Of a DNA stretch of 20,000 nucleotides, positions 196 to 20,000 are shown piece by piece. The stretch covers positions 288,037 through 308,036 of the forward strand of contig QPGO01000100.1 of the NCBI GenBank assembly GCA_008632985.1. Direction: 5' to 3'. Below the pieces are notes generated by a model. It was given only the letters and a program-made list of their open reading frames with translations, made no database searches and was not told where the DNA came from. This DNA is from Psammoneis japonica (Eukaryota). The translations under genes were made by a program, and so were the position numbers. Within the stretch, counting starts at the first letter, position 1; each line of letters opens with the position of its first letter.

Positions 196-1272
196 GGATT
201 TCTTTTTTGAATTGTGTGATTTGTATTCGTATTTTAGACAAAATGGTTGGTTATACATCCTTTGGTTTTGATTGTTTTGTCGTTGTTCAAGTTTGCGGCA
301 AGTGGTTATTATTACTTTATTTTTGTACTGCAAGCTCGCATGTCTTGTTCCTACAATAGCGGCTGTTATCGATTCTCATTTCCAAGAGAAGTGGAAAAGT
401 CCAAATCATTCTTGCGTGTGTTGAAATAGAGCAGAACTAGTCTCTATAGAGAGAATCAGAGATAATAGAGAATCTCTATAGTTAGTTAGTAGCTTGATCT
501 CGAGAGAGTAGTTAGTTCGTTCGTCGGTTGACTCGTCATTTCACGATTTCAACACGATGTTGCCACATTGATGTAGTGGCGTCAATCTAAATCCATATAC
601 ACCACGAGATTTGGCCAAGGCAGCTATACATTGTGAACTCTAGGTTGGCGTTGATTTTTAAACTCGGTTTTGCTTTGATATCATCTCTAGCTCAATGTTT
701 TAGAGTTTTTCCCTATAGTTTTGTACAACTTGGACGAGACCTGCATGAAATGGGGCGTCGTGTGTCATGATGGGACCCATCATCTTGATCTATCTAGAGT
801 GTACTGTACCACGAAGCGAAAGAAGCGCGGCGGTTACGATGGGCAATTAAAAAAATGTCAATAATTGAAGTAAATAAACACGTGGAATGTGGTCTCTGAC
901 CTTATTGCGTGGCTGAAGAAAACACGAGCTAAATCGCTGTCACTTCCAAATCTCCCTCCGACCTCATCACAACATCAGCTGAAAACAAACACCAAAACCC
1001 GCCGTCGTTCTACAGTCCCGGTTCATTTCAGGAGAATCATACCCCATATCCAGCCCAACATTGAATGTTGTAAAAGGTGACAACACCATCTTCCCCTCTC
1101 TCGGGCGGCACGATCGATGCGGGGGAGTTGTGTTTTTGGTGCGTTTCACGCAGAAATCTACGTGTCTGGTGCTTGACGTTGATGCTTCCTCTCGATGGAT
1201 GCCTCAGTTTCTGCTCTCGATTCTCTCACAATCTTTTCTTTGACCAGGAAGTAACACAGTCAAGACATCGCC

Positions 1273-2720
1273 ATGATTGCCTTCATGAAGAACCTTGTTG
1301 TCATCTCCCTTGGCATTGCTGCCGGTGCCGCGAGTGCTGGTCCCTTTGCCCGCCCGCTTTCGGCCGTCTTTGACTCGACGGTGCAAGGTGTGTTGATTGC
1401 TGTGAAAGCAAGTCAAGACATGCTTCACATTGCTTTGGCCATGACCACAATTTTTGCGCCGATCGAAAGCCATGATGACTCCTTCATCCGCCTCCCAAAA
1501 CATCCTCCGCAACACCACACCTGCGAGCATGCCCGTTGAAGCTCAAATCAGGTCGAGCATCTATTGTGTGTCTTTTGACCACAAGGACTGCGACTCCACC
1601 CTTCTTCACAACATCATTCGAAACTGCACACCTGTGGACGACGTGCCAGTTGAAGCTCTAAAAGCCTCGAGCTCTGTCTGCCAGTCTTCCTTCGACTTGT
1701 CCTTGGAGCACGAAATCGATTTGTCTGGCCGTTTCCAAGAAATCTTTCAAGAGCACGTGCCCACCGCAATGATGCCCATCCTGACATTTTCCGACACTTG
1801 CAAGATTTTGTCAAACTGTGCCATTGAGACCACGTTGAAGTTGCACACGACACTCCATGAATTCTCTTTGAAGACCACCAAGACTGTTCGTGAAACCGCT
1901 TCGAGCTTGCACAAGATCATCCATGACTCCTTGAAGACCTTTGTCACAAAGATGCAAATTCAGGCTTGCATTTGGAAAGAACACATGATGACGCAGCTTC
2001 AGACACCAAGATTGTCATTGGAATGTTGGTGGACGACAATTTTCAAGAATCAACAAATGGCTTTGTCACGCTTGTTCAAACTCAGGCTTGTGCTCTGCAT
2101 GAAAAATACGAGACGATGCTGTTTCAGACACCAAAATTGTTCTGCATCCAGAACATTGGTGGACAAGAGTTCAAAACTTGTGGAAGAGCTTTTAGTCTGG
2201 GTGCGAGTGTGGGCGAGCGAGATGTCAAGAGTTGGGGACATTCCTTGTGTCCCGATCCGAATCATGCGGTGAATTGGGTTGGTTGTCAGACACAGGGTTT
2301 GGAGTTCCAAGTCGCCAGTTGTCAGATGATGCAGCAGGTGTCCTGTGCAGACACAAATGAAAATTTATCCATCTCTGTCATAATTCACATGCTGGGTTGG
2401 TGTCCATTGCTCCATCAAAAAGGTTGTGCCGCAAACCGTGTCTCCCAAGAACGACTTCCGCGCGCGACTGCCTGATGATGATCCAAGCTGCCTTTGCCAG
2501 TGCAGCTTCAGACAGACCCACAGCACTTGCGTGGCACAGAACCTGTCGGCATCACACTCGCACAAGAGGAAACCGCAGAGAGGGAAGGCTCTGGCGCATG
2601 CCAAGATGACTTTGATTGTTGCAAAGAACACGAACAACATGCACCGTGCCAGTCGGCAAGACTCACAAGTGTTTTCGGCTTGCCCAGACGCATGTAACGC
2701 ACAGTTTGAGACCTTCTAAT
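1273..2720 (+). pseudogene. Degenerate gene of unknown family with a hydrophobic N-terminus and internal repeats, split over several frames
   Basis: Successive overlapping + ORFs (1273-1539, 1454-2272, 1966-2475, 2426-2719); signal-like start MIAFMKNLVVISLGIAAGAASA; internal ~122-bp repeat (1939 vs 2061); almost no Tyr. No family recognised and boundaries are approximate. Confidence 0.35.
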
Positions 2721-2779
2721 GTCGCAGACGCATGCTGTGAATGTGAACTCTGTTGATGCAGTGGATTGAGCTGTGGTCA

Positions 2780-3433
2780 TCGTGCCAAATTTGGTCACCA
2801 TGAATTTCTTGCGGGGACTGCGACAGGCGTTTTCAACGGGGGTTCAGCAATTGAGAAGCTGTGTCGTGTGTGTCAGCCTCAAGCGCTTGCACTCTTTGGA
2901 TCCAAAAATGTTGCAGCAGCTCACAGACTTTAAGCCTGAGAGCATCATGCCCAAATCTCTGGCCAGCTGATCAACTGGAGGATCAGATTTGAGGCCCTCA
3001 GTGTCAGCCTGCTGGGACACAACTGGCTCTTTGCACTGATGAATCTTGGTCCTTGCCGAAGAGAGATTGCTGTTGCTTGAGAGTTGATCTGCTGAATCGA
3101 TTTCATGCGCACAGTGAATGCGAAGCCATTGAGCCACAACGTGAGGTCTGGCTGAGACACTTCTTTGCCCGTGGGCCTTGCGATGGAGCAGCTGATGCAA
3201 TTGCCGAGAGCAGGTCGCTTTGCAAGAGTGTCGGTTTGGCAAAGGCCATTGCAGACATGTGGAATCGGATTTGGTCCAATGCAACCCCATGGAGTGGCAA
3301 GAGTTACGTCAAGGAGAACATCACGACTCTCCTCGGCATAAAAGTCACCCACCGTGACTGCAAATGAGCCATCATCCCTCTTGACGGCACTTTCATGATG
3401 GACTTTGGTGATTTTGTCACCAAGATTTGCCAC
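2780..3433 (-). pseudogene. 5'-truncated, frameshifted fragment of a VWA-domain protein (post-VWA region and Vwaint-like C-terminus)
   Basis: VTVGDFYAEESRDVLLDVTL resembles the GDLYAEExRD motif that follows VWA domains. In other frames: HVVAQWLRI...ARTKI...DQLARDLGMMLSGLKSVSCCNIFGSKECKRLRLTHTTQ and NACRSPRKKFMVTKF, resembling the helical tail ending in HxxQR. No MIDAS motif seen upstream. Confidence 0.7.
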
Positions 3434-3949
3434 CTCTTGGTTTTGGTCACGTGACGGGCCTGTAGAAAACCCAACGAGTTTGATGACTTTCTTGTCACGT
3501 GCTTTGGAGCACTCTCAAGTCGCTTCTTCTTGCTGATTGACAGAGAAGGGATGACCACGTGTGTTCGACTGTCGCGACTGAGCAGGAAAGTGTGAACATG
3601 GCGAGGTCACGTGCATTCTGCAGCAAAAGTGAACTTGATGAGTTGGCAATGGGAACCTCTTCATTGTTGCTTCACTTCTTGGTGCGCCAACTGTCAAGTG
3701 TGCATGAAATGTCGTGTGCTCGCACTCAAAAGAACGCGACCATGACGTCAAGCTCATTGCTCTTACAAAACTGCTTTCCACCCGGCCTCGGTCTAAAATC
3801 AATGTGCCATCAGTGCCCACATGGACATCATTCCAGAAAAGCACGGGGTGTCAGTCTGGCTGGGCAAAAGAGTCCAAAGGACATCACAAACCCACTGTCC
3901 ATCAAGTTTTTGTCTGGCTTCGGAGTCCAGTGGCTAGACTCTTGTTCCA

Positions 3950-4819
3950 GTTCTAAAGCTTTCAATTCATGCAACGGCGGCACATTCTCCATCACTCCCG
4001 GGTTCCAGTTTCTCCCAGATCACCCCCATCATTGGCTTTTTAGGTGGTGGCTCAATTTGCATCTGCTGAGTTGGCGTTGCAATGTAGTCAGAGAGGGTGT
4101 CGCAAGGGCTTGGACAAAGTTCCTGATCGGAAACAACCTGGCAGTCATGAACCAAAGATGCAACTGGCATGCCCAAGTCGATGACTCCAATCTGGTGGAG
4201 CACAGCCCATTCCAGGTCAAAGCATCCATGTCCCTTGCCAAAACGCAGCCCATCTCGGTTGACGACTGAGGCTCCTGCAACTGCCAAATCTAATTTGCTG
4301 TGCCTCTGACGAATGTCCGACAACGAAACGCATTGCCGACATCTTTGCAGTTGTCCAGCAAAACAGTTGCACTGGCGGTGCCGGCAGTCTCTCCATCTGA
4401 TGGCCTGATTTTCAAAATTACCTTCTGCATCCCACCTGTTGGCATGACAACCACCTTGCCGTCTTGTCCTTCTGCGCATCCCAGCAGCTTCTCGAGACAG
4501 TTGTCAGGTGTGATGAAGATGGTTTTTGCTTCTGAACATGCTTTCATTTGTCACAATCTTTTCGTTGCAAGTTCGCTGCCTTCAAAGTCTGGAATGAAAT
4601 GGTTGAAGTCACAGCCATGACACTTGTGAGGTTTCGCCACTCGCTCCATTCTCGTCACACCCACTTGGCGTTGCAGCCTTGCGCCAAGTTGCCACGTCAT
4701 TTTGTCCCACTGACAGCAGCTTGCAGTGGACGGGAGGTGCAGGCGCGAGGGACAGCTGGTTGTTCTTCACTGGCATTTGTCATGGATTCTCTGCTTTTGC
4801 CCATTGTGGAGGCACCCAT
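3950..4819 (-). pseudogene. 5-formyltetrahydrofolate cyclo-ligase-like (MTHFSD-type) pseudogene
   Basis: Motifs in the expected order across frames: RVAKP..DFNHFIPDFEGSELATKRL, TIFITPDNCLE, LDLAVAGASVVNRDGLRFGKGHGCFDLEW, VHDCQVV, DYIATPT, GVIWEKLEPG/VMENVPPLHELK. In-frame TGA at 4551-4553 and several frameshifts. Confidence 0.85.
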
Positions 4820-5290
4820 GGATGTTCTGTTCCGCAGAAATGTGAAAGGCAGAATCTCTGGCCTGGGGTGGCAGTCGCGTGGATTCCTTCTCCATTGACC
4901 GTCATCAAAAGCAACACCACAGAAACATTCCTGCCAAGGCAGTTGCACATTTAGGAAATGAAACGTTCTTCCCAACACCGGCAGAAGTGAAGGATTCTTT
5001 TCGAACCTCGACGGTCAATGGCGGGTCCAATCACAAAACACAAAACATCTCGCAGTGGAGTCTCTGCTCTCTGCTCGCTGCAACAAAGAGTGAGTCCATT
5101 TTCATCAGGAGCTGGATGAAGCCCATGGTACAAACTTAGAGACAACGGGTCTAACGGCACCAGCGCCATTGTCGAGAATCAATCATTAGATTTTGATGAT
5201 GCTCTCTGCAGATGTTGCAGAACGTAGGTTCCACGTAGAAGTAATGCTATAAATCTCTCCCCAGCGTTTGAATTAACAATTTCTTACCCG

Positions 5291-5418: not shown

Positions 5419-5706
5419 TTTGTGTGAGAATTCTGTATTCGCTGAGGATTGTTTTTGCGTAGGATTTCTACGGAGAGCTACGACGTACTGTACCTATCTC
5501 CCCACGTTATTTTGCACCTGCACCCGACTGCGCTGTTTTTCTGAAAAGTTCATTCATCGAACCAACGACAACAAGCACAGTTGTAGTTTCCCTAACCACT
5601 AAAATTCACAAATCATTGCATATCTGTACTCTTCAGCAACAGCAAGAAAAACAAGACAGAGCGAGGTGTGTTGCGAGAGTCAAAAGAGCGACAATAGAGG
5701 CGATTG

Positions 5707-6996
5707 ATGTTTTGCGTCCTTCTTGGCCTTGTTCCTCCCAATTTGGATGTTTGGAAAAAAGTAAAGGAGCAAATAATAACAACAACAAGTAGTGCTGCTC
5801 GTGATGGTAATGACGACCATGTGAATCTTCATCTCGAGTGGAGAGGTGAATCGCTAGCCACCGACGACGGGACCCTGACATTGCTCGTCGAGGCAGTAAG
5901 TGATGAACAAGCAACGCCGGAATCAATACGAGAACTTGTCGAAAAGGAGTTGTCAAACTATTCTCAAGCAGACGACATTTCGTGTGAAGTGTGGGCCTCG
6001 GCTCCGGCGCCCTTGCCTCTGCGCCCATTGGAAAGTGATTACATGGATCTTTTTCATATCCATACCGACATGATGGTTCGACTGAAACGACGACAAGAGA
6101 CGACAGTACCACCACTGTGGATACGGCAAGCAGAACGATGCGTCAATGGGGAATTCTCGTACAACACAATGTGTTGAATGAGACTCAAGTACAAGAGTTG
6201 CGTCTCCTCGTGGACGAGGCAGTTTTGCAAGCCGAACAATCCCTTGCCAAACACCGACCCGACATTGTCGTAGGACGAGATGTCTTTTTGTTTCAAGAAA
6301 TGGCGTCTCGGAATCTGGAGCGGTTTGATCTTCGTCTAACTGGGGATGCGTCCGACTTTGTAGAAGACCATATTCTGAACAACACGGCCGTGTCGGCCTT
6401 GCTGGAAGCAATTTTGGGAAAGGATGACGACATTGATTTTGACTTGTCCGTGGTGTATTCTCGGCCGGGAGCTTGTACTCAAGGTTGGCACGCCGATGGT
6501 AACCATCAAGTGGGTGCACTCGATGCTGGATGGACCGCCGACGGCTGGAAAACGTCGTTGGCGGATGCCTATGCCGTTTGCATGTTTATCCCCTCATTGA
6601 TTTAAACCAGCATGTCGGATTTACCCAATTTTGGCCGGCCTCTCATCAACACCGTGACTTGGTGGGTTTTGGAAAAGTAGCCGAAATCACGCAAGCCACC
6701 TTGGATGGGACATGCTGGCGGGAAGCGCAATCTGGTATGACTACCGATTGCTTCATCGTGGAATGCCCAACCAATCGACCGTTGTTCGTCCCGTCGTTCA
6801 AATTATTTTCAAAAAGAAATGGTACATTGAAAAAGCAAATTATGGAACCGAACCAATTATAGCCGCAGTACAGACAGGAATAGTAGAGTTTAGATTTCGA
6901 ATTACTCTTTTATCAACTACGTCGTTGCATCCATCCGTCCTTTATACGAGACGACAAAGGAAACGACCAATCGTCAAGATCATGGCGATACTCTAA
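5707..6996 (+). CDS. Phytanoyl-CoA dioxygenase (PhyH)-like Fe(II)/2-oxoglutarate dioxygenase; 3 apparent frameshifts (assembly errors or pseudogene)
   Basis: QGWHADG (HxD), VCMFIP/LIDL..GFTQFWPASH, GSAIWYDYRLLHRGMPN and RPV motifs occur in consecutive ORFs. Frame changes near 6065, 6592 and 6713. The true stop may lie near 6885. Confidence 0.8.
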
Positions 6997-8542: not shown

Positions 8543-9746
8543 TTATGATTGTCGAATAACAGACAAGAAGAATTCGCCCAAGGTTTGGTACCACTCTTCA
8601 GTCATGTGCACATTGTCGGCGTGTTCATTCACCGCCGAGGCTTCAAATGGGTCCAAAAAGGTGGATTTGTGTTGAAACTTGGGTGTTGTGGCGAGAATGT
8701 CCCCGACGGCGTGATTCCAATCTCGAGTTTCATTGAACTTTTGAGGATAATCCTCGGTAGCTGGCGCCGTGTTGCCCAAGAATATAATGTGTTCACATTG
8801 AGGTTCAACAGTTCCAAGTACCACTTGGCGTTCTTTTCAAACATGGGTTGTGTGATATTTGGTATAGCCGCATCATGGTGACCAAAGCAAACGACACAGA
8901 CTGGCTTCCCCCACTGTTCCACATTGGATTTCGTGTTGAAGGTTTTCGATAAGAAGGAGGCAACATTTTCTTGCGTTGTGTGAAACTCTGGAGACTGCAT
9001 TTCCACATCTCGAGCAAATTCTACTCCAAAGTACCCTCCATAGATGAGAGGCTTGGTACTATTGCAAGACTTTTTAGGCGCTCGTCCGTAGTCACCACAT
9101 ATTCTGTCTGACACCCGGCACATCTGTGCAGTAGGGGTTCTCTGCTCCAAAAGACGTTGGTCCTTCGGCATTTTGAAGATAGTTGGGGCGTCCACTTTTT
9201 CTTACGTCTATAGGCTACATCAAATATCTTGTTGTTGTGACAGCGGCGGGCCACCTCATGGCGAAAGCTGTACTTGTTTCCACAGGTTTTTGCGATTCGT
9301 TCCGACGCTTGCTTGAAAGATACTTTCCGACGGTCGTTCTCCGAGCCAGTCGCATAACGGTAGAGTCCCGAAAAATAACCATCTTTGCCCATCCGTTTTG
9401 ATCCAGGCTTTGATTTTTCTTTTTAAACGGGAGGCGCGACGAGAGAACCTTTCTGCATTCAAACTGGTCATCAGGTGACCACTCGCACGACATTTTAATC
9501 TCATTGCTGTCGTCAATCGTTACCTCTTTTTTGTGGTTTGACATAACTGTGCTTTTGGATCCTCATCGAATGCCAGTGAAACTATAACGCGATCCGCAAT
9601 CAGTCCAGCCAGAAACGCCAATGTCAAAATCAGCCACACCTTTTTCTTGTGCAACACCGACGGAGCGACACTCTTTTGATCAGTCGTTACCATTTTCAGT
9701 TTCAGCATAGTAAGGAGTTTCAGCAACTAGGGATAAATCTCCCCAT
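8543..9746 (-). pseudogene. Multiply frameshifted paralogue of the 10228-11532 gene (SGNH/PC-esterase-like type II membrane protein)
   Basis: Shared blocks RWLFFG/DST, VEFARDVEMQSPEF.TTQENVA, GKPVCVV..G.HD..IP.IT, KWYL, EPQCEHII and a C-terminal D..H(M) motif, distributed over at least 6 ORFs. Confidence 0.8.
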
Positions 9747-10227: not shown

Positions 10228-11532
10228 ATGAATTCAAAAATGGAGTTCCAGCCACTGGTCGTTGAATCAGGTGATGACTACCGAGACGACGGCGATCCCA
10301 AATCGTCTAAAACGAACAGCAAAATCCACTCTTCTCCCACAACCTTATCTACAAAACGCCTGCGGCTGCTCGTGCCATTAGTTTTTCTATGCGGAATTAT
10401 TGCAAGCCGAACCGTTACAATACTATTCTCGAGAACTAATTCCAAGGAAGCCCCCAGCTTCGAAATCGACGACAACAAGGAAGAAGAGGGAGCGGAAGAG
10501 TCTATCATAGACTCGGACAAGAGCATGACGCCCATTAGTACGGCTTCTGTGGAGGCTACCAGCCAGCCAGCGAAAATCGAGTGCATCTGGGGTCCTAAAG
10601 CGCAAGACGAGTGTAAAGATTTCCTGAATGCTCGCCTTCCTTACTCTCAACCAAACAGGTCGCCTAGCAGTAGTCGGATTGGCCATCGTTGGTTATTTTT
10701 CGGTGACAGCACAATGACACGGCTGGTTCGGACAACAAATCTTAGTGTCTATCTGGCTCGCAAGGCAGCTGATAGAATCAACAAGGAATGCCCAGACAAG
10801 TTCGAATGTGACCTGCGGCTTGCAAAGAAATGCATGTACAACGAGAAATTTGATTTGGAATACCGAAGGAACATGGACTGGACACCTCCCGACTATTTAA
10901 ACAAGGCTGAGGGACCTAGAGATGTTCCAAATGAGCCCTACTGTGTAGATTGTGGGGGGTGCAGATACGAGTTTGTAGTCTGTAAAGATTTGGGGCCTAA
11001 CAGGACATGCAACGGTCTTGACGCACCAGTTACACATGGAGGGTTGATCACTGTGGAATTCGCTAGAGATGTCGAGATGCAAAGTCCTGAATTTCTAACC
11101 ACGCAAGAAAATGTTGCTGCATTCATGGCTCGCTCGTTTTCTCCACAATCGATTGTCGATTCCCTCGGCAAGCCCGTGTGCGTGGTAAATACTGGGACGC
11201 ATGACTCCAAGATCCCAAAAATCACAACAGAAAAGTTTATGACCAACCTCAAGTGGTATCTTGGTCTACTAGAGCCACAGTGCGAACACATTATATATCT
11301 TGCCACGGTTGCTCCCGAAGCAGATCGGTTCCCCGGACACATTGCCTTGATGTATGAATGGAATATCAAAGTCCACGAGTTTCTCGCCACGGATGCGAAA
11401 TTTCAAGAAAAATCTACGTTTATCAATGTATTCAACACTTCAAAGGAGGAGGAGCACGATGGGAAAATACATATGGAACAATCATGGTACGATGATCTCG
11501 CATCCTTGTTTATGCCACTTATTGATAAGTAG
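10228..11532 (+). CDS. Type II membrane SGNH/GDSL-like (PC-esterase/TBL-like) protein, putative polysaccharide O-acyltransferase or esterase
   Basis: Intact 434-aa ORF with one N-terminal TM segment (LLVPLVFLCGIIA), an acidic stem, WLFFGDSTM (GDS nucleophile), VVNTGTHD and C-terminal HDGKIHM. Confidence 0.75.
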   Translation: MNSKMEFQPLVVESGDDYRDDGDPKSSKTNSKIHSSPTTLSTKRLRLLVPLVFLCGIIASRTVTILFSRTNSKEAPSFEIDDNKEEEGAEESIIDSDKSMTPISTASVEATSQPAKIECIWGPKAQDECKDFLNARLPYSQPNRSPSSSRIGHRWLFFGDSTMTRLVRTTNLSVYLARKAADRINKECPDKFECDLRLAKKCMYNEKFDLEYRRNMDWTPPDYLNKAEGPRDVPNEPYCVDCGGCRYEFVVCKDLGPNRTCNGLDAPVTHGGLITVEFARDVEMQSPEFLTTQENVAAFMARSFSPQSIVDSLGKPVCVVNTGTHDSKIPKITTEKFMTNLKWYLGLLEPQCEHIIYLATVAPEADRFPGHIALMYEWNIKVHEFLATDAKFQEKSTFINVFNTSKEEEHDGKIHMEQSWYDDLASLFMPLIDK

Positions 11533-11781
11533 ATAGCCCGAAGCCCAAAAGGGATGCATTTGCAGCGGGGAACGAAGCGTTCACGGGGTTAAGATCTAAA
11601 AGTAGGGGGACTTTATGACACACACACTAAGATATTTTATGTCTAACAAGAGCGACTGCTCCTCCCGATTCATGCTGTTGAAAACGTTCGGGTTGTCCTG
11701 AAAAAAATCTTGGATGGCTCCTGCATGAGGATTTTGGTAGTAACCCCTCACGCTTCTAGTCGAGCCACCTTTGTTCAGAAA

Positions 11782-12498
11782 CTACTCAGTCGCCTCAAGG
11801 AACCCAGATCTCCTTAATTATTCGTCGTTACGATGGTTCTGATAGAGTCTTGTAAGAATTTCATTTTGTTGGTGTCTTGGGGAGTAGTCACACGAATGAA
11901 CAGGTCAGAGCAGCAGCAGTCGTCAAGGTCCGCGAACTTCTTGACGAAGTAACGGACTCTTTGTTCATAGTCCGTTGGAATTTCTGCAAAGGCCTTGGAT
12001 GGTTCCTGGTCTTGAATGCCGCTCGACAGAATCTGCTTTGCAAACAGGTCCTTTTGATTGAGCACGAGGATTTTGGAAATATCGTTTGCTTCTTTTGAAT
12101 CACAAAGCCTCTCCCAACTCTCCAATGCGCGCTTCATTCGATTCTTCCTTGCGTGCTTAGTGACACTTTTTGCTTTATCTGGACCATACTCGTCGTCATT
12201 TGGCAAGTCTGCAACGAACAAGGCCGCATCCCTGTATTTGAGATACTTGGTCCAGTCACCATTTGGTTGACTTACACACAAACGAGACACGTCGAGAAAC
12301 TCATGCTCAAATCCATCAATCAGGTACCTATATTTGGTAATGAAAGATGAAATTGATTCAACTCTCTCGTACCTTCCATATCGCTCTCGTATCGCTCAAA
12401 GAGCGCCACGAGAGCTTTAGGATCTCCCTCACAAGAATCCTGACTTTGTCCAGGTTCGCTCGCTCCAAGACATGCTCTTCCGGCGCAGGTGCAATCAT
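11782..12498 (-). pseudogene. Degenerate G-alpha-like gene, copy 1 (about 3 frameshifts; pseudogene or assembly errors)
   Basis: ALFVADL..DDEY...NRMKRALESWERLC...ILVLNQKDLFAKQI...VRYFVKKF...FIRVT...DTNKMKFLQDSIRTIVTTNN/LRRSGFL; high DNA similarity to 13469-14293. Indels near 12430, 12395 and 11815. Confidence 0.8.
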
Positions 12499-13468
12499 GG
12501 TTACTGTACCAACAAAATGCTTTCTCTAACTATGTCATTTTCATAAAATGTCGCATTACGTAGGAAATGAAGTTCACGTTTGCTACACTGTATGCAACAT
12601 TTTTTCTTCTTGCTGCCACGTCGGGTTGGGGGTTCGCGCTTCGATCCTTGCTTCGAGATGGTTGATTCTTGTTTTTGTTTGTCACCCGCGATCTTTCAGT
12701 CATGGGTCGTGCGATAGAGGTGGAATCAGGAATCTTTCGATTTACACCTGTTTCAACAAAAATGAAGGAGCGATAATAAGGAGCAACACCGCAACACCAT
12801 GGCGGCGCCATCTGCCGTAGGAGATTGATAGCCGGGCTTCTTTCTGCTGTTACTAACGCAGTCAGACATGAAGGTGATTTGAAGGTCTGAAAAGGCCATC
12901 AAACCGCTCCTAAAAGACACGAGATAGACGCATGAGGAGAAAGGCGCGTCCGTGCCGGGCGTTTACCTACGTTCAAGGAGAAACTTAGAGACACACTACA
13001 CACCCCATGTAAACAAAGCGTTTGATGGATACCTAAGGAGGCATTTTATGTTGAAAGGATAGCAAGATACAGCGAGATTCACGAATTGCTCATCACATCA
13101 ATCTGATCGCTTTGGTCTTGTTCTCCCTGTGAGCGTCCCACAAAGAGAGATCATGAATTAACTTCATAAGTTGTAAGTATAGTCTTTGTTCTCGTAAGTT
13201 GTACTGAAAAGCACCATCCCACATGACGAAGACAAAAACCTTTGCACAGGGAGTTGGATACGTGGTACAAGTCTTTGGACTTGGTGGATTACGATGAAAA
13301 GAACATACTTTCTCTCTGATGGGTGGGATCACATAGTTTGTTGATCAATCGGTGCACCAGAACAGCAAAGTCAGTCTCTCTCACATGATTTCTTCCATCC
13401 TGTTGTCTTTTCAGGAAACTTATGCTTTGACTCTGGTCTCGAAATGTACAGTATTTTGTTGGTATAAA

Positions 13469-14293
13469 CTACCGTGGAAAAGAACGCGTGACGAAAGCTC
13501 GATTCATCATTCGACGTTCAGCCTTTCCAAGCCAGTTCTTGACTCTGCGCGCAACAGACGCAGTGTCTGCTGAGCCATCCAGCAACCCAGATCTTTGTAA
13601 ATTTCCAATCATGATGATGGATCCGATACATTCTAGTATGAAGTCCGAGTTGGCGCTATCGTGCGGAGAAGTCACACGAATGTACAAGTTGGAACGGTGA
13701 CAGTCTTCACATTCTTTGAACTTTTGGATGAAGTACCGGACTCCCTGTTCAAAGTGTTTTGGTTTCCCTGCAAAGTCCCTGAATGGTCCCTGATCTTGAA
13801 TGTCACTCGACAGAATCTTTTCCGCAAACGTATCCTTTTGATTCAGTATGAGGATTTTGGAAATCCCCTTTGCTTCTGGTGAATTGCACAGTCTCGCCCA
13901 ACTCTCCAAGGTGCGAGCCATTCGATTCTTCCTTGCCGGTTTACTATCACTGTACTCTTTGCTGGAATCGCAGTATTCATCATAGTCGGCTAAGTCTGCA
14001 ATGAACAAGACCGCGTCCCTGTTTGATAGATACTTGGTCCAGTCACCGTTCGATTGACTTGCAAACAAACGAGACACGTCGAGAAACTCAAGCTCAACTC
14101 CATCAATTAGGTACAAGTACCTATATTTGGTAATGGAATCTGAACTTGATTCAACTCTCTCGAACCGTCCATATCGTTGTCGTATCCCTTCAAAGAGTGC
14201 TGCTTGTGCTTTCGGATCTCCCATTCCGATTACGAGTATTCTGACTTTGTCCTGGTCCGGTTGCTCCAAGACATGCTCTTCCGGTGCAATCAT
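13469..14293 (-). CDS. Degenerate heterotrimeric G-protein alpha-like protein lacking the helical domain, copy 2 (intact, 274 aa)
   Basis: The G-alpha C-terminal half is recognisable: DAVLFIADLADYDE, NRM..TLESW..LCNS, ILILNQKDTFAEKI, GVRYFIQKF, YIRVTSPHD, IIMIGNLQRSGLL. The G1, G3, G4 and G5 boxes are altered. Confidence 0.85.
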   Translation of the reverse strand: MIAPEEHVLEQPDQDKVRILVIGMGDPKAQAALFEGIRQRYGRFERVESSSDSITKYRYLYLIDGVELEFLDVSRLFASQSNGDWTKYLSNRDAVLFIADLADYDEYCDSSKEYSDSKPARKNRMARTLESWARLCNSPEAKGISKILILNQKDTFAEKILSSDIQDQGPFRDFAGKPKHFEQGVRYFIQKFKECEDCHRSNLYIRVTSPHDSANSDFILECIGSIIMIGNLQRSGLLDGSADTASVARRVKNWLGKAERRMMNRAFVTRSFPR

Positions 14294-14536
14294 GGTTGCC
14301 AATTGTGCTTTCTCTATTTGCGTTTAATTCTATAAAGTGTCGCGGTAATGAAAGTACTTCACCTTTCTATGCAGTTTGTGAATGCAGTATTTGCTTTTTC
14401 TTTGAGTTCGCATCTATTTTCAATGCGCTCTGCTTGTCAGAAGAATTGTAAAGCGCGGTGTCAGTCGTGGGTGATGGGTCGTGGGAAATGCGACGACCCG
14501 CCTTACTTACAGTATGGCCCTCTCTCTACTCTACCG

Positions 14537-14596
14537 GTAGCTACTCTCTACTCTACTCTAGCTAGCTAGACTAGATAGAGAGTAGAGAGTAGCTAC
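14537..14596. repeat. Perfect 18-bp inverted repeat in a CTAG/TAGAG-rich low-complexity island
   Basis: GTAGCTACTCTCTACTCT (14537-14554) pairs with AGAGTAGAGAGTAGCTAC (14579-14596); internal palindrome TCTAGCTAGCTAGA at 14557-14570. Confidence 0.9.
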
Positions 14597-15718
14597 AGAA
14601 GATTGTGAAGTTGTAGATTATATACGAGGACCCTCTTCTCACTCAATACGCTCTGTGTATAGTCATAAATTATTATCTCAAATCGTTTTAGACATTCAAA
14701 CTCAATCCATTTCGAAAGGAAAAGCTGACGTACTGTGATAACGCCATCGTTACAATCGGCGACCTCACTGGCTTATTCTTTTTGACCGTTTGGAATCGGT
14801 CAGCAAGGCGCACTACCGCGGCGGTGACGCTAGTAGTAAGTGTTGTAGGCTTTGGGCTCGGCATTTGCGCGGAAATTTTGATTCTGGTTTCACGTCGCTC
14901 ACTACTTGAGTGCAAAAACGAAAACGAAAGGGAGACTCCATCCAGGTTTGTCATAGTAGCCGGGACGTGGATACTGTAGGAACTTGAAATTACTCTCTAG
15001 GAGATTTTAATTGCTGTGGCGGCTTTTCCTCTCTCCAGGCCGGTACAGATGCAGCGAGCTCAAAACGACCGTTGATGGCTCATTCATCTCATTTTCCTTG
15101 TGAAATGTTAACACCAACAAAAGACTCCTCAAATTACAGTGGGCTTATATTATAAACCACTTGAAGGAACGAAAGCCGATTACTTGGCGAACTCGGTAGG
15201 TAAAGAAGTTGAACCAGCACGGGCCAAGAAGAAAGATCGTGGCTACAATGACGAGGATAGTTAAAAAAAAGCATAAGTATTTGTGGCTGCTATTAATAGA
15301 GGTATTGATGCAGACAAAACATATTTGCGGGCTGCAAGCTAAAGCAGAATACAGCTACCGCACTCCAAAATGGGCAATTACAAATATGAGCCATGACGAA
15401 TTCATGAAGAGGAAACTCAAAATAGAAGTACGATGGTCAACCCAATCCTTAGATATCCATATACTTGAGGAATACGTTGCGTTTGCGACTATCATTTGTC
15501 CCTGTCCGCAGAACAAGCAGCAGCCAAGGCAACGTCATACTGGCTACAAGAGAGAGCAGGTACGACACCCCTGAGAGCGCATTCAACAGATGTCCCAAAT
15601 CTCATAGACATCCACACAATTCTAATCTAAAACAGACACCAGGAATGCAATAGTATCGTGAGATTTGCCCTGCAATTGTTCGGACAGTGCAATGATACCT
15701 TCACACCAATCGTCGAAT

Positions 15719-16835
15719 TCAAGGACTGTGTCGTTTTAACCGTTTGAAAGGTGGAGGAGCAACGCTTTCTTCCACTATGGCGACGCTAGTATCATAGATT
15801 TTGGTTTCAGGGTTCATGCGGAAGAGCTTGTATACAACCGTCAAGGGCGACGTATTTTCAGCAGCGGCAAGCATGAATGGAAAGAGTCCGTTCTGGTCTT
15901 GGACTGCAAGCAAAGCCGGATGAGCGTTGACCAGAGTGTCAACGCCCTCATCCCATTCTCGGCCGCTTTCGATTGCTAGATGCAAAGGCAGCTTTCCATC
16001 TTGGTTTGGTTCCTTAGCAAGATCAGGCTTTGCATCCACCAGTATCTGCATCGTTGTTTTCAGAGTTCCGCATCGCCGTTCCGTCCTTGCTGCAACGGCC
16101 GCATCATTTATCTTAAAAGTGGAACAGCAACACAATGGACTTTCACAAGTGTGTTTGTCAAAAGAAGCAGATGCAGCAACATGGATGGGCATGTTACCAT
16201 CCTCGTCCATCTCTTTTATTTGATCACGATTTCCTACAATTGCAAGTTGGAGTAGACTTGGTGGACAGTGTTCGATCCCACAACATGCGTGGAACAGTCT
16301 GAATGCCTTTCCGTCAGACAAAAAAGTGTCTGCAATCGACCGATGGTAAAACGCTTTTAGCACAAGCGTCAGCCTCTCGAAAAAATCATTGTTTAAGTCC
16401 CGACTCTCATCACGGAGGGTATTTGCTGCAATGCTTGCAAGAGTACTTTCCCCAGTTTCGATGAGACGGCATGCTTGTCTCATTTTCTTGTGATTGCACG
16501 TGCACAACAGTGTCAAAGCATTCATCCTGCGATTTTTGGCCACGCCGGTGTGATGGTTAATAGATCTGCACGTAACAAGCTTTGTTGCATCCGGCCCATT
16601 CTCAGTCTGCAAACCGGACTGGAGCATTGCTTTCAGCAACATTCGAACAACAGCCACCGAGCTTCTAAGAATCGCATGATTCAACGGAATCACAGCATTC
16701 GCATTGCGAACGCTCACGATGGACAGCATTCTGCTCAACAGAGCAGCAACGAAATGCTCCTCATGTGGGGATACGTTGACGCAGCCAAAGTCAATTGGTG
16801 TGCATCCGGTCCGAGGGTCGCTTGCGGTTGCGAGA
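15719..16835 (-). pseudogene. Ankyrin-repeat-like gene, 3' part, separated from its start by the transposon
   Basis: DEDGNMPIHVAA, NQDGKLPLHLAIESG..W, QDQNGLFPFMLAA...L.VVYKLFRMNP are ankyrin-like repeats. It joins 19244-19350 in frame once the element and one TSD are removed. Confidence 0.85.
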
Positions 16836-16842
16836 CTCCGAA

Positions 16843-19243
16843 TCAAACCCCCAGAAAATTATATTTTTAATTTCCCGCCAGTGCTAGAGCTGTTCCATTA
16901 ATTGCAACTAGAGCTAGAGAGGCTGCAATTAAATTGCAATTAATTGTACAATTGCGACCCAGCAATTACCGCTAATCTTCGTCATCATCGTCATCATCAT
17001 CGCTCGCCACCATGGCCGCCATGGCTGCAATGAGAGCCTCCTCTTCAATCCTCTTGGATGCTCGGCTTTCCTTGTTTTTCTCCAACCTCTTGTTGTTGGC
17101 TTCAACCACATCGCTGACACTCCAGAGATTCTTGTTTTCCTTCAGAAACAAGATCATTTCAAAAACGAGTGGAGACAAACCGGCCCTTCGCTTGGTCATG
17201 ATGTCGTCGGCCTTGCTCCACAGTTGTTCCACCACTGCTGCACTGCCCATGATGAAGCCACAATCAATGTACAAAGACTCGTTCTCCATTTCCCTGGCAG
17301 CCCGCTTGTTGTCTGCTTCCACCGCCTTGTCGATGTCGTCGTCACTGCTGTCGCTGCTGTCATCGCTCTCCTCGTCCCCTTCTGCAGAACCACCCCCACG
17401 ACGTTCAAAGCTGGATTTGAGCAGAAACCTGCAAGCCTGCTTTTCAGCTTTAGTCAATTCGCTCTCGTAGGCCACTCCTTTCTGAATCTTAGCCACTCCT
17501 GTCTCAAAGTCGGGGTGCGTGGACAAGCCGTTGTCGGGCTTGATCTTTTCATCTCCCAGGGTGCACTTGCAGTGACTGCTTTTGGGCTTGTGCGCTTTCC
17601 TTGTCACCTTCGAATGCAGCTTGTTCAGAAGATCTTGGCACTTGCTGAGCGATTTCTTTTTGCTCTGCATGTGGGCCGACACCTTCTTCATCTGCTTCAG
17701 ATGCCGGCCGTGAGTCTTGCATTTCCCAATGAAGGACATCTCTGCAGTTTCCTGGTGTTCCTGCAGCTTGCCCGACTTGTCCTCTTCAACAAGTTTGTGG
17801 CAATGAGGGTGGAGCTTCAGGTGGGACCCGAGGGCTTCTTCCGACCCTGTCCACTTCCTTGTGATGGATGCAGCCTTTGCACGGACGCTGCTGTGCTTGT
17901 CAGGCTTGGCAGCGGCATTTCGGAGTGCAGTGGAACATTTGGCGGAGGCCCTCACAGATGAAGATAGATTGCACACCTTGGTGGTGCAATCCTTCAGCTC
18001 CTCATTCCGTGCCATCATCAGGTCATTCTGCAGCGCCAGGTTGTGATTCTTGCAAGACACATGAGGATGGCCCATGTCGTTTGCAACCTTGATGTTGACG
18101 GATGCACTGTCGGCGGCTTGACAAAGGATGAACGATGTGGCATGCTTGTCACACACGTCGAATGTTTCTTCAATGAAGTTCCGGTGGTGGTCCGCATCAA
18201 ATGACACCGCTTCGAGGTCCTTGTCATCCTCGTCATCCTCCGACATGGCCGGCATGGGTGATGCCAACAGCAAACGCAACTCGTGCATCTCTCTTGTTTC
18301 CTCGGTTCTGTCTGCAATGATGCGCAGCTTCTTGTTGAAAGAAGAATGCAGGGCCACATGATGGACACCGCACTTGGTCCAGCCATCACAAACAACTTGG
18401 CAACCCGGCGCCATTTCCATCACATCAGTGATCTTCCCCTCTGCTGTCTCAGCAAGGTGAAACATGGTGTCCAGCACCGTCTCTGTGCCAGACACTTCAG
18501 GACACTTTGCATGAGACCGTTCGACCTCATTCGTCACGCAGCTGACTGGACGATTTAGAAGGACGATTTTCTCTATCCACACATGGAGCGAGCGGTGGAA
18601 ATTAGTGACAGCCTGAAATTTCTGTTGCACTGGTGCCAAGTTGCCCTCTTTTGCCTCTGCTTCCTTTGCTTCGGCTTCAGCCAATTGTTTTCTGCGCTCA
18701 GCAACAATGACAGGAGCCTGGTCCTTGATGCAAGAGAGCCAATGGTTGCAGGGGTTGGCAAACCCATCTTTCTTCTTGATGAATTTCGAGTGGTTCTTGC
18801 AGTTTGGGCACGTGATTTTATGTCCTTTTACGTCCTCATCGAGAAGCGTGACGGTCGTTTCTTCAACATCCATGACAAGGAGCACAAGTTCTTTGCCCTT
18901 GGGCAAGTCTCCTGCTTGCTCCATTGTGGAGGAAGGAAGTGGGATGCAATGTGACATGCCGTTCACGACGACGACGACAACAACAACAAACAAACTGAGC
19001 AAAAGTGCCAGAACCACACCGACAATTCCTCACCACGGAGTCATGACCGTGTGGAAAACCACGTCTTTTTTGCACTGAGAAAGACACAACAAAGATGCAA
19101 TTTTTTATGTGCAATGTTCAGCAATTAAGCACAATGTAACTCAAGCCAATGCATTGAGGAACAGGTGAACGTGCTGCAATTAATTGACAATTGCAGTTGA
19201 TTGCAACCAATTGCATTGGCAATTGATTGTTCTGGGGGTTTGA
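16843..19243 (-). mobile_element. Complete hAT-like DNA transposon, 2401 bp, perfect 14-bp TIRs, 7-bp TSD CTCCGAA
   Basis: TCAAACCCCCAGAA (16843-16856) and TTCTGGGGGTTTGA (19230-19243); CTCCGAA at 16836-16842 and 19244-19250; GCAATT/AATTGC subterminal motifs at both ends; internal transposase ORF. Confidence 0.93.
16972..18924 (-). CDS. hAT-like DDE transposase (~650 aa), open frame but heavily Tyr-depleted and probably inactivated
   Basis: BED-like finger CPNC...NHWLSC; DGWT; ADSASVN; CKNHNLAL (CxxH); TRKW; GSAAVVEQLWS; RRAGLSPLVFEMILFLKEN. Only 2 Tyr. Start taken at MEQAGD (18924). Confidence 0.88.
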   Translation of the reverse strand: MEQAGDLPKGKELVLLVMDVEETTVTLLDEDVKGHKITCPNCKNHSKFIKKKDGFANPCNHWLSCIKDQAPVIVAERRKQLAEAEAKEAEAKEGNLAPVQQKFQAVTNFHRSLHVWIEKIVLLNRPVSCVTNEVERSHAKCPEVSGTETVLDTMFHLAETAEGKITDVMEMAPGCQVVCDGWTKCGVHHVALHSSFNKKLRIIADRTEETREMHELRLLLASPMPAMSEDDEDDKDLEAVSFDADHHRNFIEETFDVCDKHATSFILCQAADSASVNIKVANDMGHPHVSCKNHNLALQNDLMMARNEELKDCTTKVCNLSSSVRASAKCSTALRNAAAKPDKHSSVRAKAASITRKWTGSEEALGSHLKLHPHCHKLVEEDKSGKLQEHQETAEMSFIGKCKTHGRHLKQMKKVSAHMQSKKKSLSKCQDLLNKLHSKVTRKAHKPKSSHCKCTLGDEKIKPDNGLSTHPDFETGVAKIQKGVAYESELTKAEKQACRFLLKSSFERRGGGSAEGDEESDDSSDSSDDDIDKAVEADNKRAAREMENESLYIDCGFIMGSAAVVEQLWSKADDIMTKRRAGLSPLVFEMILFLKENKNLWSVSDVVEANNKRLEKNKESRASKRIEEEALIAAMAAMVASDDDDDDDED

Positions 19244-19350
19244 CTCCGAAGCTCTTCCTGGGAGCCAGTTGCATCAACGAATTCAATGGCTCTCGTCCAG
19301 TCCCTTTGGCGCACATAATTGAGGAGTGCCCTTTCATCATTGTTCTCCAT
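19244..19350 (-). pseudogene. 5' part of the interrupted ankyrin-like gene
   Basis: MENNDERALLNYVRQRDWTRAIEFVDATGSQEELR continues as SLATASDPRTG from 16835; the reconstructed CDS is 107+1117 = 1224 nt (407 aa). Confidence 0.85.
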
Positions 19351-20000
19351 TGTTGTTGCGCCGTTCGTACCGACTGTGGTTATGAAATTTACCTGTGCAC
19401 TGTAATGTCTTCGGCGAGAGTGCGTTTCGGTTTTTTGTGTGAGCGTGGTTTTGGCGGGAGTTCGATTATTTAGGTCTAACAAAACATATGAAGCCTAATA
19501 GCATAAATACATTTATATGACATACAATAACATAAGTATACATTTGCAGAAGCTGTTTCGGACAATGACCGTTTTTCGATTTTTAGTAGAAATCGTACCA
19601 GCTTTTACACCAAACGCGCTGTTTTCTGCGAGGCCAGAAAGTTCAAGGTTTTCTCGTGTCACATGGTATGCAGAATAACAGCAGTACCGGCAAGGAAGAG
19701 AAGTCTTGGATGGAAGCAGCGGCCCCGGAAATGGCATTTCAGTTGTGGCTATTGCATTGATAGCGTCCTATCAAGTCAATACGAGGAAGTATGAAGTCGT
19801 CCCTGGTCAAAAAGTTTCTCAAGAAACGACGTAATCATCAATCGAGCAAGTCAGCAAAAAAGCATGCGGATGGAACGAGTTGCACCAGTGCAGCGTTGGA
19901 AGAAGCCACAGCAAGTCAAGACGAAGGACAACAAAAAGAGTGTCATGTGGAATTACGCAACGATGAGGGTGTTCCGAAATATGTGCAAATGACCTTTACT

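Follow-up and report, generated by a model that had tools for sequence, protein, structure and literature searches.

Probable fast TpA loss in a hAT transposon that splits an ankyrin gene of Psammoneis japonica

Results

Structure of the insertion

The analysed window comprises 20,000 nucleotides of contig QPGO01000100.1. Between positions 15719 and 19350 it holds an ankyrin gene that is split by a DNA transposon (Table 1). Removing 2,408 bp in silico (16843-19250) restored an open frame of 407 aa from the ATG at 19350 to the stop at 15719, and the rebuilt protein reads ...QEELR-SLATASD... across the junction, as the preliminary description had proposed. An uninterrupted paralogue of 405 aa on contig C2 confirms the reconstruction: it aligns straight through the junction position and shares 92% of the DNA and 88% of the protein sequence with the rebuilt gene. 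These are the only two copies of the ankyrin gene in the assembly. A homologue search returned 14 matches, all of them distant with a best identity of 29%, and we used the C2 paralogue for the comparison instead. The dN/dS of the pair was 0.61, which suggests that the paralogues are under weak constraint at most.

The same description had called the TIRs and the TSD perfect. This holds on paper, though the limits differ: the element has a 13-bp TIR and an 8-bp TSD, and a single additional T stands at 16843. The TIR begins at the equivalent of the C at 16844 at both ends of the C14 element, in the C249 copy and at both ends of the metagenome relative L030. The TSD of the C14 element is 8 bp long with 7/8 positions matching, and this single other copy is the basis for the family TSD length; for L030 no TSD was seen. 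On the C14 evidence we set aside a 7-bp TSD with a 14-bp TIR, which predicts the same empty site as the 13-bp/8-bp parse, as well as a 9-bp TSD with one mismatch. An edited TA as the origin of the first TIR base was rejected since the unedited L030 has the same start. A search with the TIR pattern gave 6 matches compared to 24 for the reversed control, and the match on C80, which lacks further homology, was discarded as a chance match. Both TIRs are perfect and contain zero TpA. The insertion in itself is ordinary.

Table 1. Features of the split ankyrin gene and of the inserted element (window positions)
Feature	Position	Strand	Remark
Ankyrin gene 5' piece, first 33 codons	19251..19350	-	Insertion in codon 34
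Ankyrin gene 3' piece	15719..16842	-	Pfam Ank_2, E 1.7e-8
hAT DNA transposon, 2,399 bp	16844..19242	-	Sole full-length family member found in assembly
13-bp TIR, end 3' of transposase	16844..16856	+	Start same as in C14, C249, L030
13-bp TIR, end 5' of transposase	19230..19242	-	Perfect match to other TIR
TSD left copy, 8 bp	16835..16842	+	Family TSD length taken from C14 element
TSD right copy, 8 bp	19243..19250	+	8/8 identical to left copy
One extra T between left TSD and TIR	16843..16843	+	Absent from empty site
Subterminal palindromic repeats	19170..19229	.	Common to distant relative L030; 3/4 TTAA cores edited here
Transposase ORF, 650 aa from ATG 18924	16972..18924	-	Frame open from 19017
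Part common to C8 copy, internal clock	17560..19241	.	22 CA/TG discordant sites, 8 ordinary differences
131-bp terminal segment with little editing, from stop codon to TIR	16844..16974	.	12 TpA, o/e 0.99

Transposase

The transposase was said to lack any stop or frameshift, and we found 0 stops in its 650 codons compared to 5-37 in each of the other five frames. It keeps D180, D272, C291-x-x-H294, W358 and E566, where the position of the first Asp (D180) is assigned from the family alignment only. A profile of 61 sequences matched four entries for Hermes, a hAT transposase (PDB 6dww, 4d1q; E 3e-14 to 3e-13), and a smaller one of 7 sequences did not resolve the transposase class in the PDB search. 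Like Hermes and the hAT superfamily, the element has the second Asp region and the CxxH, Trp and Glu motifs, all spanned by the profile alignment, and a short TIR, an 8-bp TSD and subterminal repeats. Unlike them, it belongs to a distant clade under the Pfam cut-off for Dimer_Tnp_hAT (this transposase had no match, and 5/16 relatives matched below the cut-off with E 7e-4 to 8e-3), carries an extra base at the left junction and has lost almost all of its tyrosines to editing. By these comparisons we class the element as a hAT DNA transposon with a Hermes-like transposase. The one named homologue, from Entomoneis (52%), points to the lineage of the host.

Neither a further full-length copy nor an unedited one turned up in assembly G000 when it was searched with this transposase, the unedited relative P0004, the whole element and both of its ends; these searches score a limited number of candidates and the assembly is possibly incomplete.

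TpA depletion and its direction

The element contains 26 TpA in 2,401 bp (o/e 0.18). The ratio was 0.10 over the transposase ORF and ranged from 0.07 to 0.22 in the edited parts, and the 3' piece of the split ankyrin gene gave 0.36. CpA and TpG are enriched. The direction of change is TA to TG or CA, polarised by the residues of the homologues and by opposite edits in two copies of the element. Restoring TA regained the homologue residue at 21/194 testable sites, whereas restoring CG did so at 5/242 and control transitions at 1/160 and 3/130. These rates speak against the reading that the CA/TG pattern is ordinary decay of methylated CpG and that TpA is low for compositional reasons. The CpG o/e of 0.65 in the element and 25 single CG differences between the copies would suit such decay, but unedited relatives show a TpA o/e of 0.45-0.82 (11 loci) and none of the 13 discordant coding sites (see below) agrees with the homologue residue when read as CG. 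As the cause of the TpA loss we regard CpG decay as refuted; it stays as a second, parallel process.

Survival of TpA depended on context, with rates of 0.024 for RTAY, 0.093 for mixed sites and 0.34 for YTAR; for the mixed sites an additive strand model predicted 2.41 compared to 2.38 observed. In the TTTA context survival was 0.36 vs 0.07. Context alone fails to account for the terminal 131 bp, where we saw 12 TpA vs ∼3.5 expected from context survival. The earlier characterisation of the element as almost fully edited thus applies to its body and fails for this end (16844-16974). The 12 TpA of this end lie in 16860-16973, and the C249 copy reads CA or TG at 9 of these positions. Pairing with C8 does not account for the boundary of the segment, and an unedited end is also what would be left by selection for a mobile end.

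Transposase tyrosines were hit hard. In the 14 columns where half or more of the homologues have Tyr, this copy has His 6 times, Cys 4 times, Tyr once and other residues 3 times, and only 2 Tyr remain in the whole protein. The transposase is probably disabled by these edits. TpA editing of an open frame cannot produce stop codons.

Outside the element we found no TpA loss near the junction. None of the paralogue's TpA is lost in 16041-19387, and 10 TpA remain in 16347-16772. Over the ankyrin paralogues 12/32 TpA sites differ by a transition, which looks above background. The TpA loss is limited to mobile DNA, and the host gene is spared near the junction.

Comparison with the sister copy on contig C8

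We used a second copy of the element, on contig C8, as an internal clock. Over 1,675 aligned bp the two copies are 95% identical, with ∼0.5% ordinary divergence beneath. The edge of the overlap (the first 60 bases, before 17560) was left out of the tally, which removes 2/86 differences. Of the remaining 84 differing bases 51 belong to TpA-type sites and 25 to single CG differences; the other 8 are ordinary differences, among them 1 transversion. At 22 sites the two copies carry opposite edits, one reading CA and the other TG. The ankyrin paralogues, which served as a control, showed 1 such site in 1,209 bp (Fisher p 7e-5). Reading the 13 discordant sites within the ORF as TA yields the commonest homologue residue at 10 and a Tyr opposite Phe/Leu at 2; 1 is uninformative.

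In order to interpret this number we simulated the divergence of two copies. With two unedited relatives as ancestor we obtained 17.8 and 20.1 discordant sites (ranges 11-24 and 12-29; the L033 template was excluded for 8 stops in frame), and with a pre-edited ancestor 3.8 (1-7; maximum 11 in 1,000 runs). The observed 22 sites match the unedited and not the pre-edited ancestor, and therefore this copy and C8 were edited separately. A model in which all copies stem from one already TpA-poor master and nothing was fast can point to the 8/10 surviving TpA of this copy in the overlap that C8 also keeps, and to the 12/19 homologue-called edits that agree. It leaves the discordant sites unexplained, as well as the conserved Tyr codons, 5/10 of which have become His in one copy and Cys in its sister. 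Unless assembly errors intervene the shared master is refuted, and we consider it highly improbable. This disposes of one form of the proposal that an already edited copy was mobilised in trans; a narrower form, with editing at an earlier site, is taken up below.

For the 19 edits called from this copy and the homologues C8 showed 12 same, 5 opposite and 2 other states, and for the 19 called from C8 and the homologues this copy showed 12, 6 and 1, respectively. Neither differs significantly from the 59% agreement that independence predicts (p 0.46 and 0.63), and the agreement of 12/17 (95% interval 44-90%) leaves room for some edits before the split. Shared survivors had been suggested as a test, and this proved misleading, because survival depends on context also in independently edited copies. 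We found 8 joint survivors compared to ∼2 expected from a three-class model, and the TTTA context accounts for 4/8. What does discriminate is whether an edited site reads CA or TG. The dN/dS was 0.53, within the simulated 0.45-0.58, and the edits strike conserved tyrosines without sign of selection.

The common ancestor would have had normal TpA, at least 59 and probably ∼70 in 1,675 bp. An estimated ∼85% of the TpA was lost within ∼0.24% neutral divergence. From the copy pair this would correspond to erasure at 189-965 times background per target base. Assuming the mutation rate of Phaeodactylum, it would have taken at most ∼2-10 million generations. Very fast erasure, one of two options offered originally, is supported, and a TA-targeting mutator hundreds of times faster than ordinary mutation is likely. 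The two copies also have 49 CG sites in common, compared to the 25 single CG differences, which are of mixed origin. CpG sites also change far above background, for which a TpA-only enzyme gives no account. The split from C8 is only an upper bound on the age of the edits and does not date them directly against the insertion.

Empty site and read depth

The empty-site allele was looked for in three public runs, which come from one sample that is perhaps the source of the assembly. Run X1 contains a join that skips exactly 2,408 bp and carries the letters of this locus; 9 letters fit both sides, against 7 for the join of the paralogue. Run X2 contains the paralogue's join only, and X3 gave no match. 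In X1 the empty-join contig and the element-junction contig both begin at 16813, 30 bases ahead of the junction. The element-only contigs had depths of 33.8 and 34.5 compared to 53-67 on three locus-specific flank contigs (0.58 of flank depth). The insertion is probably heterozygous, and the join together with the half-depth element contigs supports the initial impression that it is recent. Intact ORFs and the TSD are a weak clock, which bounds the insertion age only to below about 2% divergence, so the insertion is not the natural clock it was taken for; the usable clock is the split from C8. In X1 two long contigs that cover the element depart from this copy by 12 and 22 letters, whereas over these stretches the assembled C8 has 16 and 35 differences; a mosaic path or an unassembled copy is possible.

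The insertion might instead be old and fixed at the locus, the empty join being due to precise excision in culture or to an unassembled third ankyrin copy. The summed depth of the two junction contigs (81.7) does exceed that of the flanks, which may mean that the culture is a mosaic or that there is a third, hemizygous ankyrin copy, and intact ORFs would still be expected with probability 0.19 at 1% divergence. However, the skipped length is exactly that of a footprint-free site, the element has 0.58 of the flank depth, the total ankyrin depth fits two loci, as many as the assembly has gene copies, and the transposase is probably disabled. We judge a fixed insertion very unlikely.

Order of insertion and editing

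The account we favour, and think fairly likely as a whole, is a hAT insertion, likely heterozygous, that probably reached this site with few edits and lost its TpA in place afterwards. The transposon lies in codon 34 of an ankyrin gene that is present as a duplicate, likely on just one of the chromosome copies. A host mutator would then have removed ∼85% of its TpA by A to G changes at TpA on either strand, striking the two adenines independently and faster with a pyrimidine after the A. The pattern is what one would expect from adenine deamination of silenced mobile DNA by a putative enzyme. That the editing followed this insertion is likely: most edits would postdate the last jump, since with them the only full-length transposase found would no longer work and the subterminal repeats would be impaired.

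Alternatively, the copy could have been edited at an earlier site after the split from C8 and then been moved here, by cut-and-paste, through a helper transposase that has since disappeared or is missing from the assembly. Erasure would still be fast under this disfavoured scenario, and the insertion would not time it. Cut-and-paste elements move whole, both TIRs are perfect without TpA, one end is nearly unedited and the flanks show no TpA loss, all as such a transfer would leave them. It requires one jump more than our favoured account, though, and no helper was found in the assembly; the X1 bin 17260-17443 shows this copy's contig alone (records can be filtered out). Moreover, at the end 5' of the transposase editing has reached 3/4 of the subterminal TTAA cores, which by analogy may hinder mobilisation: according to PMC10368747 the BED domains of Hermes bind subterminal repeats at this end, and mutations in such repeats reduce Tol2 excision. 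We regard editing at an earlier site as unlikely.

It is possible, and we suggest it only tentatively, that the mutator is active now and finds new copies after landing, even a near single-copy 2.4-kb genic insert. It would erase most TpA within ∼10^5 generations from the body outward, and the locus would have been caught mid-process with the last 131 bp unreached.

Discussion

Fungal RIP changes C to T at CpA, which gives a TpA excess and creates stops. Like RIP, the process described here is a fast host process that acts on one dinucleotide on both strands and on each copy independently, sparing neighbouring genes. The outcome is the opposite: TpA is depleted and CpA/TpG enriched, and frames stay open. 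Repeat pairing of the RIP kind is not apparent either, as the 578 bp without a close partner in the assembly (TpA o/e 0.13) are edited as much as the part common to C8 (0.07).

A closer match is the TpA hypermutation of integrated NCLDV and virophage DNA in Bigelowiella natans, described in a preprint (Mettrop et al., bioRxiv 10.64898/2026.01.13.699255) that also names RIP as a parallel. Going by that description, both systems change TpA to TpG/CpA on both strands and only in mobile or foreign DNA. The rate excess would be of the same order, ∼1,000-fold measured de novo on viral inserts in mutation-accumulation lines vs 189-965 inferred here from a copy pair. From the Bigelowiella counts we derive ∼1e-5 TA to TG/CA changes per site and generation. 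The targets differ: there viral inserts in a rhizarian, here a DNA transposon of 2.4 kb whose host is probably a diatom; for B. natans transposon targeting is only suggested from Pfam enrichment. Near-saturated editing, survival that depends on flanking bases and fast CpG change are seen here, unlike in B. natans as presented there. The enzyme is putative in both cases, an ADAT2-like deaminase being proposed for B. natans. We found no other direct reports of TpA hypermutation in the open-access literature besides those Bigelowiella viral inserts.

What is novel is the bound on the rate, together with a locus that carries its own control. Beyond composition, the locus proves the separate editing of two transposon copies, and it gives a lower bound on speed of hundreds of times background. 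The process probably kills the transposase by missense and leaves the frame open, and therefore intact frames and high divergence between copies both mislead the dating of transposable elements in genomes of this kind. The probably heterozygous insert with its 26 surviving TpA of known context is a defined experimental target. If the mutator is indeed active now, the empty allele in the same nucleus would be the control at a heterozygous locus, and the insert would be a ready-made reporter for a DNA adenine-editing defence common to diatoms and rhizarians.

Comparison of two edited copies

We compared the window copy with its closest sister, the C8 copy, over 1,675 aligned bp. At 22 sites one copy carried CA and the other TG (discordant sites), 7 sites showed TA against CA or TG, and 25 showed CG against CA or TG. 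Only 8 other differences were present, one of them a transversion, and 8 TpA were common to both copies. A discordant site would arise if a single ancestral TA was struck on one strand in one lineage and on the other strand in the other. Of the discordant sites, 13 are coding; read as TA, they gave the commonest homologue residue in 10 cases and Tyr opposite Phe or Leu in 2 (1 was uninformative), whereas read as CG they matched the homologues at 0/13. We therefore conclude that the ancestor had TA at the discordant sites. When two unedited relatives were edited independently in simulation, 17.8 and 20.1 discordant sites resulted. The ankyrin paralogues, used as a control, contained 1 in 1,209 bp.

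The ancestral stretch held at least 59 TpA and probably about 70, with a content near that of the TA-normal DNA here (44 per kb) and of three relatives (39 per kb). The window copy retains 10 TpA, a loss of 83-86%, and ordinary divergence over the same span was 0.24% per lineage (0.10-0.47%). The preliminary description had offered two explanations for a perfectly restorable gene around an almost fully edited element, very fast TpA erasure or mobilisation of an already edited copy. The first agrees with a TpA loss of 189-965 times the background per target base. The second, taken as a shared pre-edited ancestor, was rejected, as the simulation gave 3.8 discordant sites (maximum 11 in 1,000 runs) against the 22 observed.

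At 4.77e-10 mutations per generation, as given in the accessible part of PMC6604790, the two copies split at most 2-10 million generations ago. This is an upper limit because 7 of the 8 ordinary differences were transitions, some adjoining edited sites. A single named homologue supports placing the host among the diatoms. At the rate derived from the Bigelowiella counts in the available text of Mettrop et al. (bioRxiv 10.64898/2026.01.13.699255), the same loss would take ~1.7e5 generations, in which the gene would gain ~0.1 substitution. On these counts a perfect reconstruction is therefore expected and poses no paradox.

The element, its copies and the split gene

Taking out 2,408 bp restored an ankyrin frame of 407 aa with an Ank_2 match in its 3' part (Pfam, E 1.7e-8). 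The C2 paralogue (405 aa, 92% identical in DNA) has no interruption and aligns through the junction, which bears out the intact frame described earlier. The 14-bp TIR and 7-bp TSD proposed there are valid on their own, but we prefer an 8/8 TSD with one extra T at 16843, because the TIR starts one base further in in the C14 non-autonomous element, the C249 copy and the distant metagenome relative L030, and the C14 element has an 8-bp TSD. hAT transposases nick the donor DNA one base outside the element, and the extra T could come from this. Judged by its sequence the transposase is a hAT protein, and its 61-sequence profile matched Hermes (E 3e-14). In the edited parts the TpA o/e was 0.07-0.22; it reached 0.99 in the terminal 131 bp, and the 3' part of the host gene gave 0.36.

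Besides the window copy, the family in the searched assembly (G000) comprises at least the truncated C8 copy (95%), the older, broken C249 copy (87%), the 580-bp C14 element and fragments on C162; this is a lower bound, as the searches score few candidates. Neither an unedited nor a second full-length copy was found in G000, and searching with the unedited relative P0004 did not change this.

Features in the window and associated copies
Feature	Position	Strand	Remarks
hAT element	16844-19242		Perfect 13-bp TIR; transposase on - strand
Rebuilt ankyrin gene	ATG 19350 to stop 15719	-
TpA-poor block	911-5131		Second such block; 27 TpA in 1000-5000, o/e 0.11; broken host-like gene pieces, among them a 5-formyl-THF cyclo-ligase fragment
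PhyH-family dioxygenase gene	5704-6862		Split among three frames that overlap, through frameshifts, introns or assembly errors; homologues 360-480 aa
434-aa ORF and inverted paralogue	8629-9544 and 10228-11532		Facing each other; paralogue more broken, 74% over 89 bp; no Pfam family matched the ORF
G-alpha-like genes	11700-14300		Tandem pair ~1.79 kb apart, 74-88% identical
G-alpha/ankyrin region	11795-16842 and 19244-19387		Segmental duplicate of G000:C2 ~720,900-725,200 (85-97% identity), there a TA-normal island of ~4.5 kb with a TpA-poor block on each side
Inverted repeat	14537-14596		Perfect, 18 bp, around low-complexity sequence with many TpA kept; contig depth 330-770 in public run X1, hence related sequence repeated, yet apparently unedited
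C8 copy	G000:C8 163406-165088		Several former TA now read CG (changes on both strands); more CpG decay than window copy; 6-bp deletion and 1-base insertion in TIR
L025	G000:C249 28799-29167		370-bp element with inverted ends, nested in C249 copy at parent TA; flanking dinucleotides now CA and TG (possibly a duplicated TA target, its two copies edited oppositely once inserted, or else part of the L025 TIR); relative on C162

Age and zygosity of the insertion

The insertion had been called recent on the strength of intact frames and perfect junctions, which make a weak clock. With the Phaeodactylum indel-to-substitution ratio of 0.033 (from the accessible part of PMC6604790), the probability that both frames are still open falls from 0.19 at 1% divergence to 0.04 at 2%. 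No stop can arise in an open frame through TpA editing, and just 3 CGA codons lie one CpG step from a stop.

Recency is supported instead by the contigs of X1, in which we found two joins, each omitting exactly 2,408 bp. In the first, 7 letters fit both sides, and the join is that of the C2 paralogue, distinguished by its letters at 16826 and 16835. In the second, 9 letters fit and the base at 16835 is that of the window locus. Its short side starts at 16813, as does the element-junction contig, 30 bases before the junction; we take this shared start to be a point where the assembly graph branches on locus-specific sequence, if words of 31 letters were used. The empty-site allele sought earlier is thus probably present in contigs from one sample. 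The element-only contigs had depths of 33.8 and 34.5 and the three flank contigs 53-67, a ratio of 0.58. Because of the locus-lettered empty join and this depth ratio, the insertion is probably heterozygous. Against this stand the two junction depths, which total 81.7, the origin of all runs from one sample, and the evidence being contigs, not reads.

Editing before or after insertion

If one copy gave rise to the other, or a third copy produced both when the insertion occurred, every edit of the window copy was made in place. The sole break in this argument is an extra jump, in which an already edited window copy moved into the ankyrin gene. Three observations speak against this jump. The edits show no sign of selection (dN/dS 0.53 against 0.45-0.58 for neutral change), and Tyr became His or Cys at 10/14 conserved-Tyr columns, leaving 2 Tyr against 16-23 in full-length homologues. 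The window copy was therefore probably unable to move itself, and the few-candidate searches of G000 found no helper. At the end 5' of the transposase, 3 of the 4 subterminal TTAA cores, a motif common to L030, are edited. Hermes binds this end through its BED domains, according to the accessible part of PMC10368747, and by analogy only the edited cores would count against a jump. The other, nearly unedited end kept 12 TpA, fast contexts included, where 3.5 were expected, and C249 lost 9/12; the TpA-rich end fits both an extra jump and in-place editing. Overall we consider it likely that the edits were made after insertion at the ankyrin gene.

Surviving TpA and the mutational process

Whether surviving TpA are shared or private had been suggested as a test. 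Sharing with C8 was found for 8/10, but the test would mislead since editing was independent. We measured survival by context in ~105 kb of DNA, comparing 500-bp bins with ≤6 TpA (51,000 bp) and ≥14 TpA (42,500 bp); in-between bins were left out and family copies kept in, unmasked. Survival ranged from 0.585 (TTAA) down to 0.007 (ATAT), the ranks being safer than the absolute values because bins were picked on TpA count. A model with two rates per strand, fast or slow according to the base that follows the A, predicted 2.41 for the mixed class (2.38 observed). It gave ~2 shared survivors against the 8 found, and TTTA context accounts for half.

The pattern is what independent A-to-G changes would leave if they struck TpA of either strand in silenced mobile DNA. 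The host gene is sharply spared: between 16041 and 19387 zero paralogue-present TpA were lost. A transition separates the ankyrin gene from its C2 paralogue at 12 of 32 TpA sites (8 absent in C2, 4 absent here; unpolarised). This looks above background and may reflect low-level leakage into genes. CpG sites change fast too (25 single differences against 49 shared), in part by decay in C8 and in part because former TA sites became CG. This suggests a state of methylation or of broad mutagenicity.

Adenine deamination would be the simplest chemistry; thymine modification yielding T-to-C would have the same sequence outcome. The former is proposed for Bigelowiella TpA hypermutation in the available text of Mettrop et al. 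(bioRxiv 10.64898/2026.01.13.699255), whose process the editing here matches as far as described there; their supplements may list transposon cases. Our literature search, which covered few subscription papers, found no other report of TpA hypermutation and none for diatoms. The process runs opposite to fungal RIP and does not belong to it.

The feature is real and the hAT insertion itself ordinary, but the mutational process is barely known. Two independently edited copies place a bound on its rate, and the probably heterozygous locus makes it testable.
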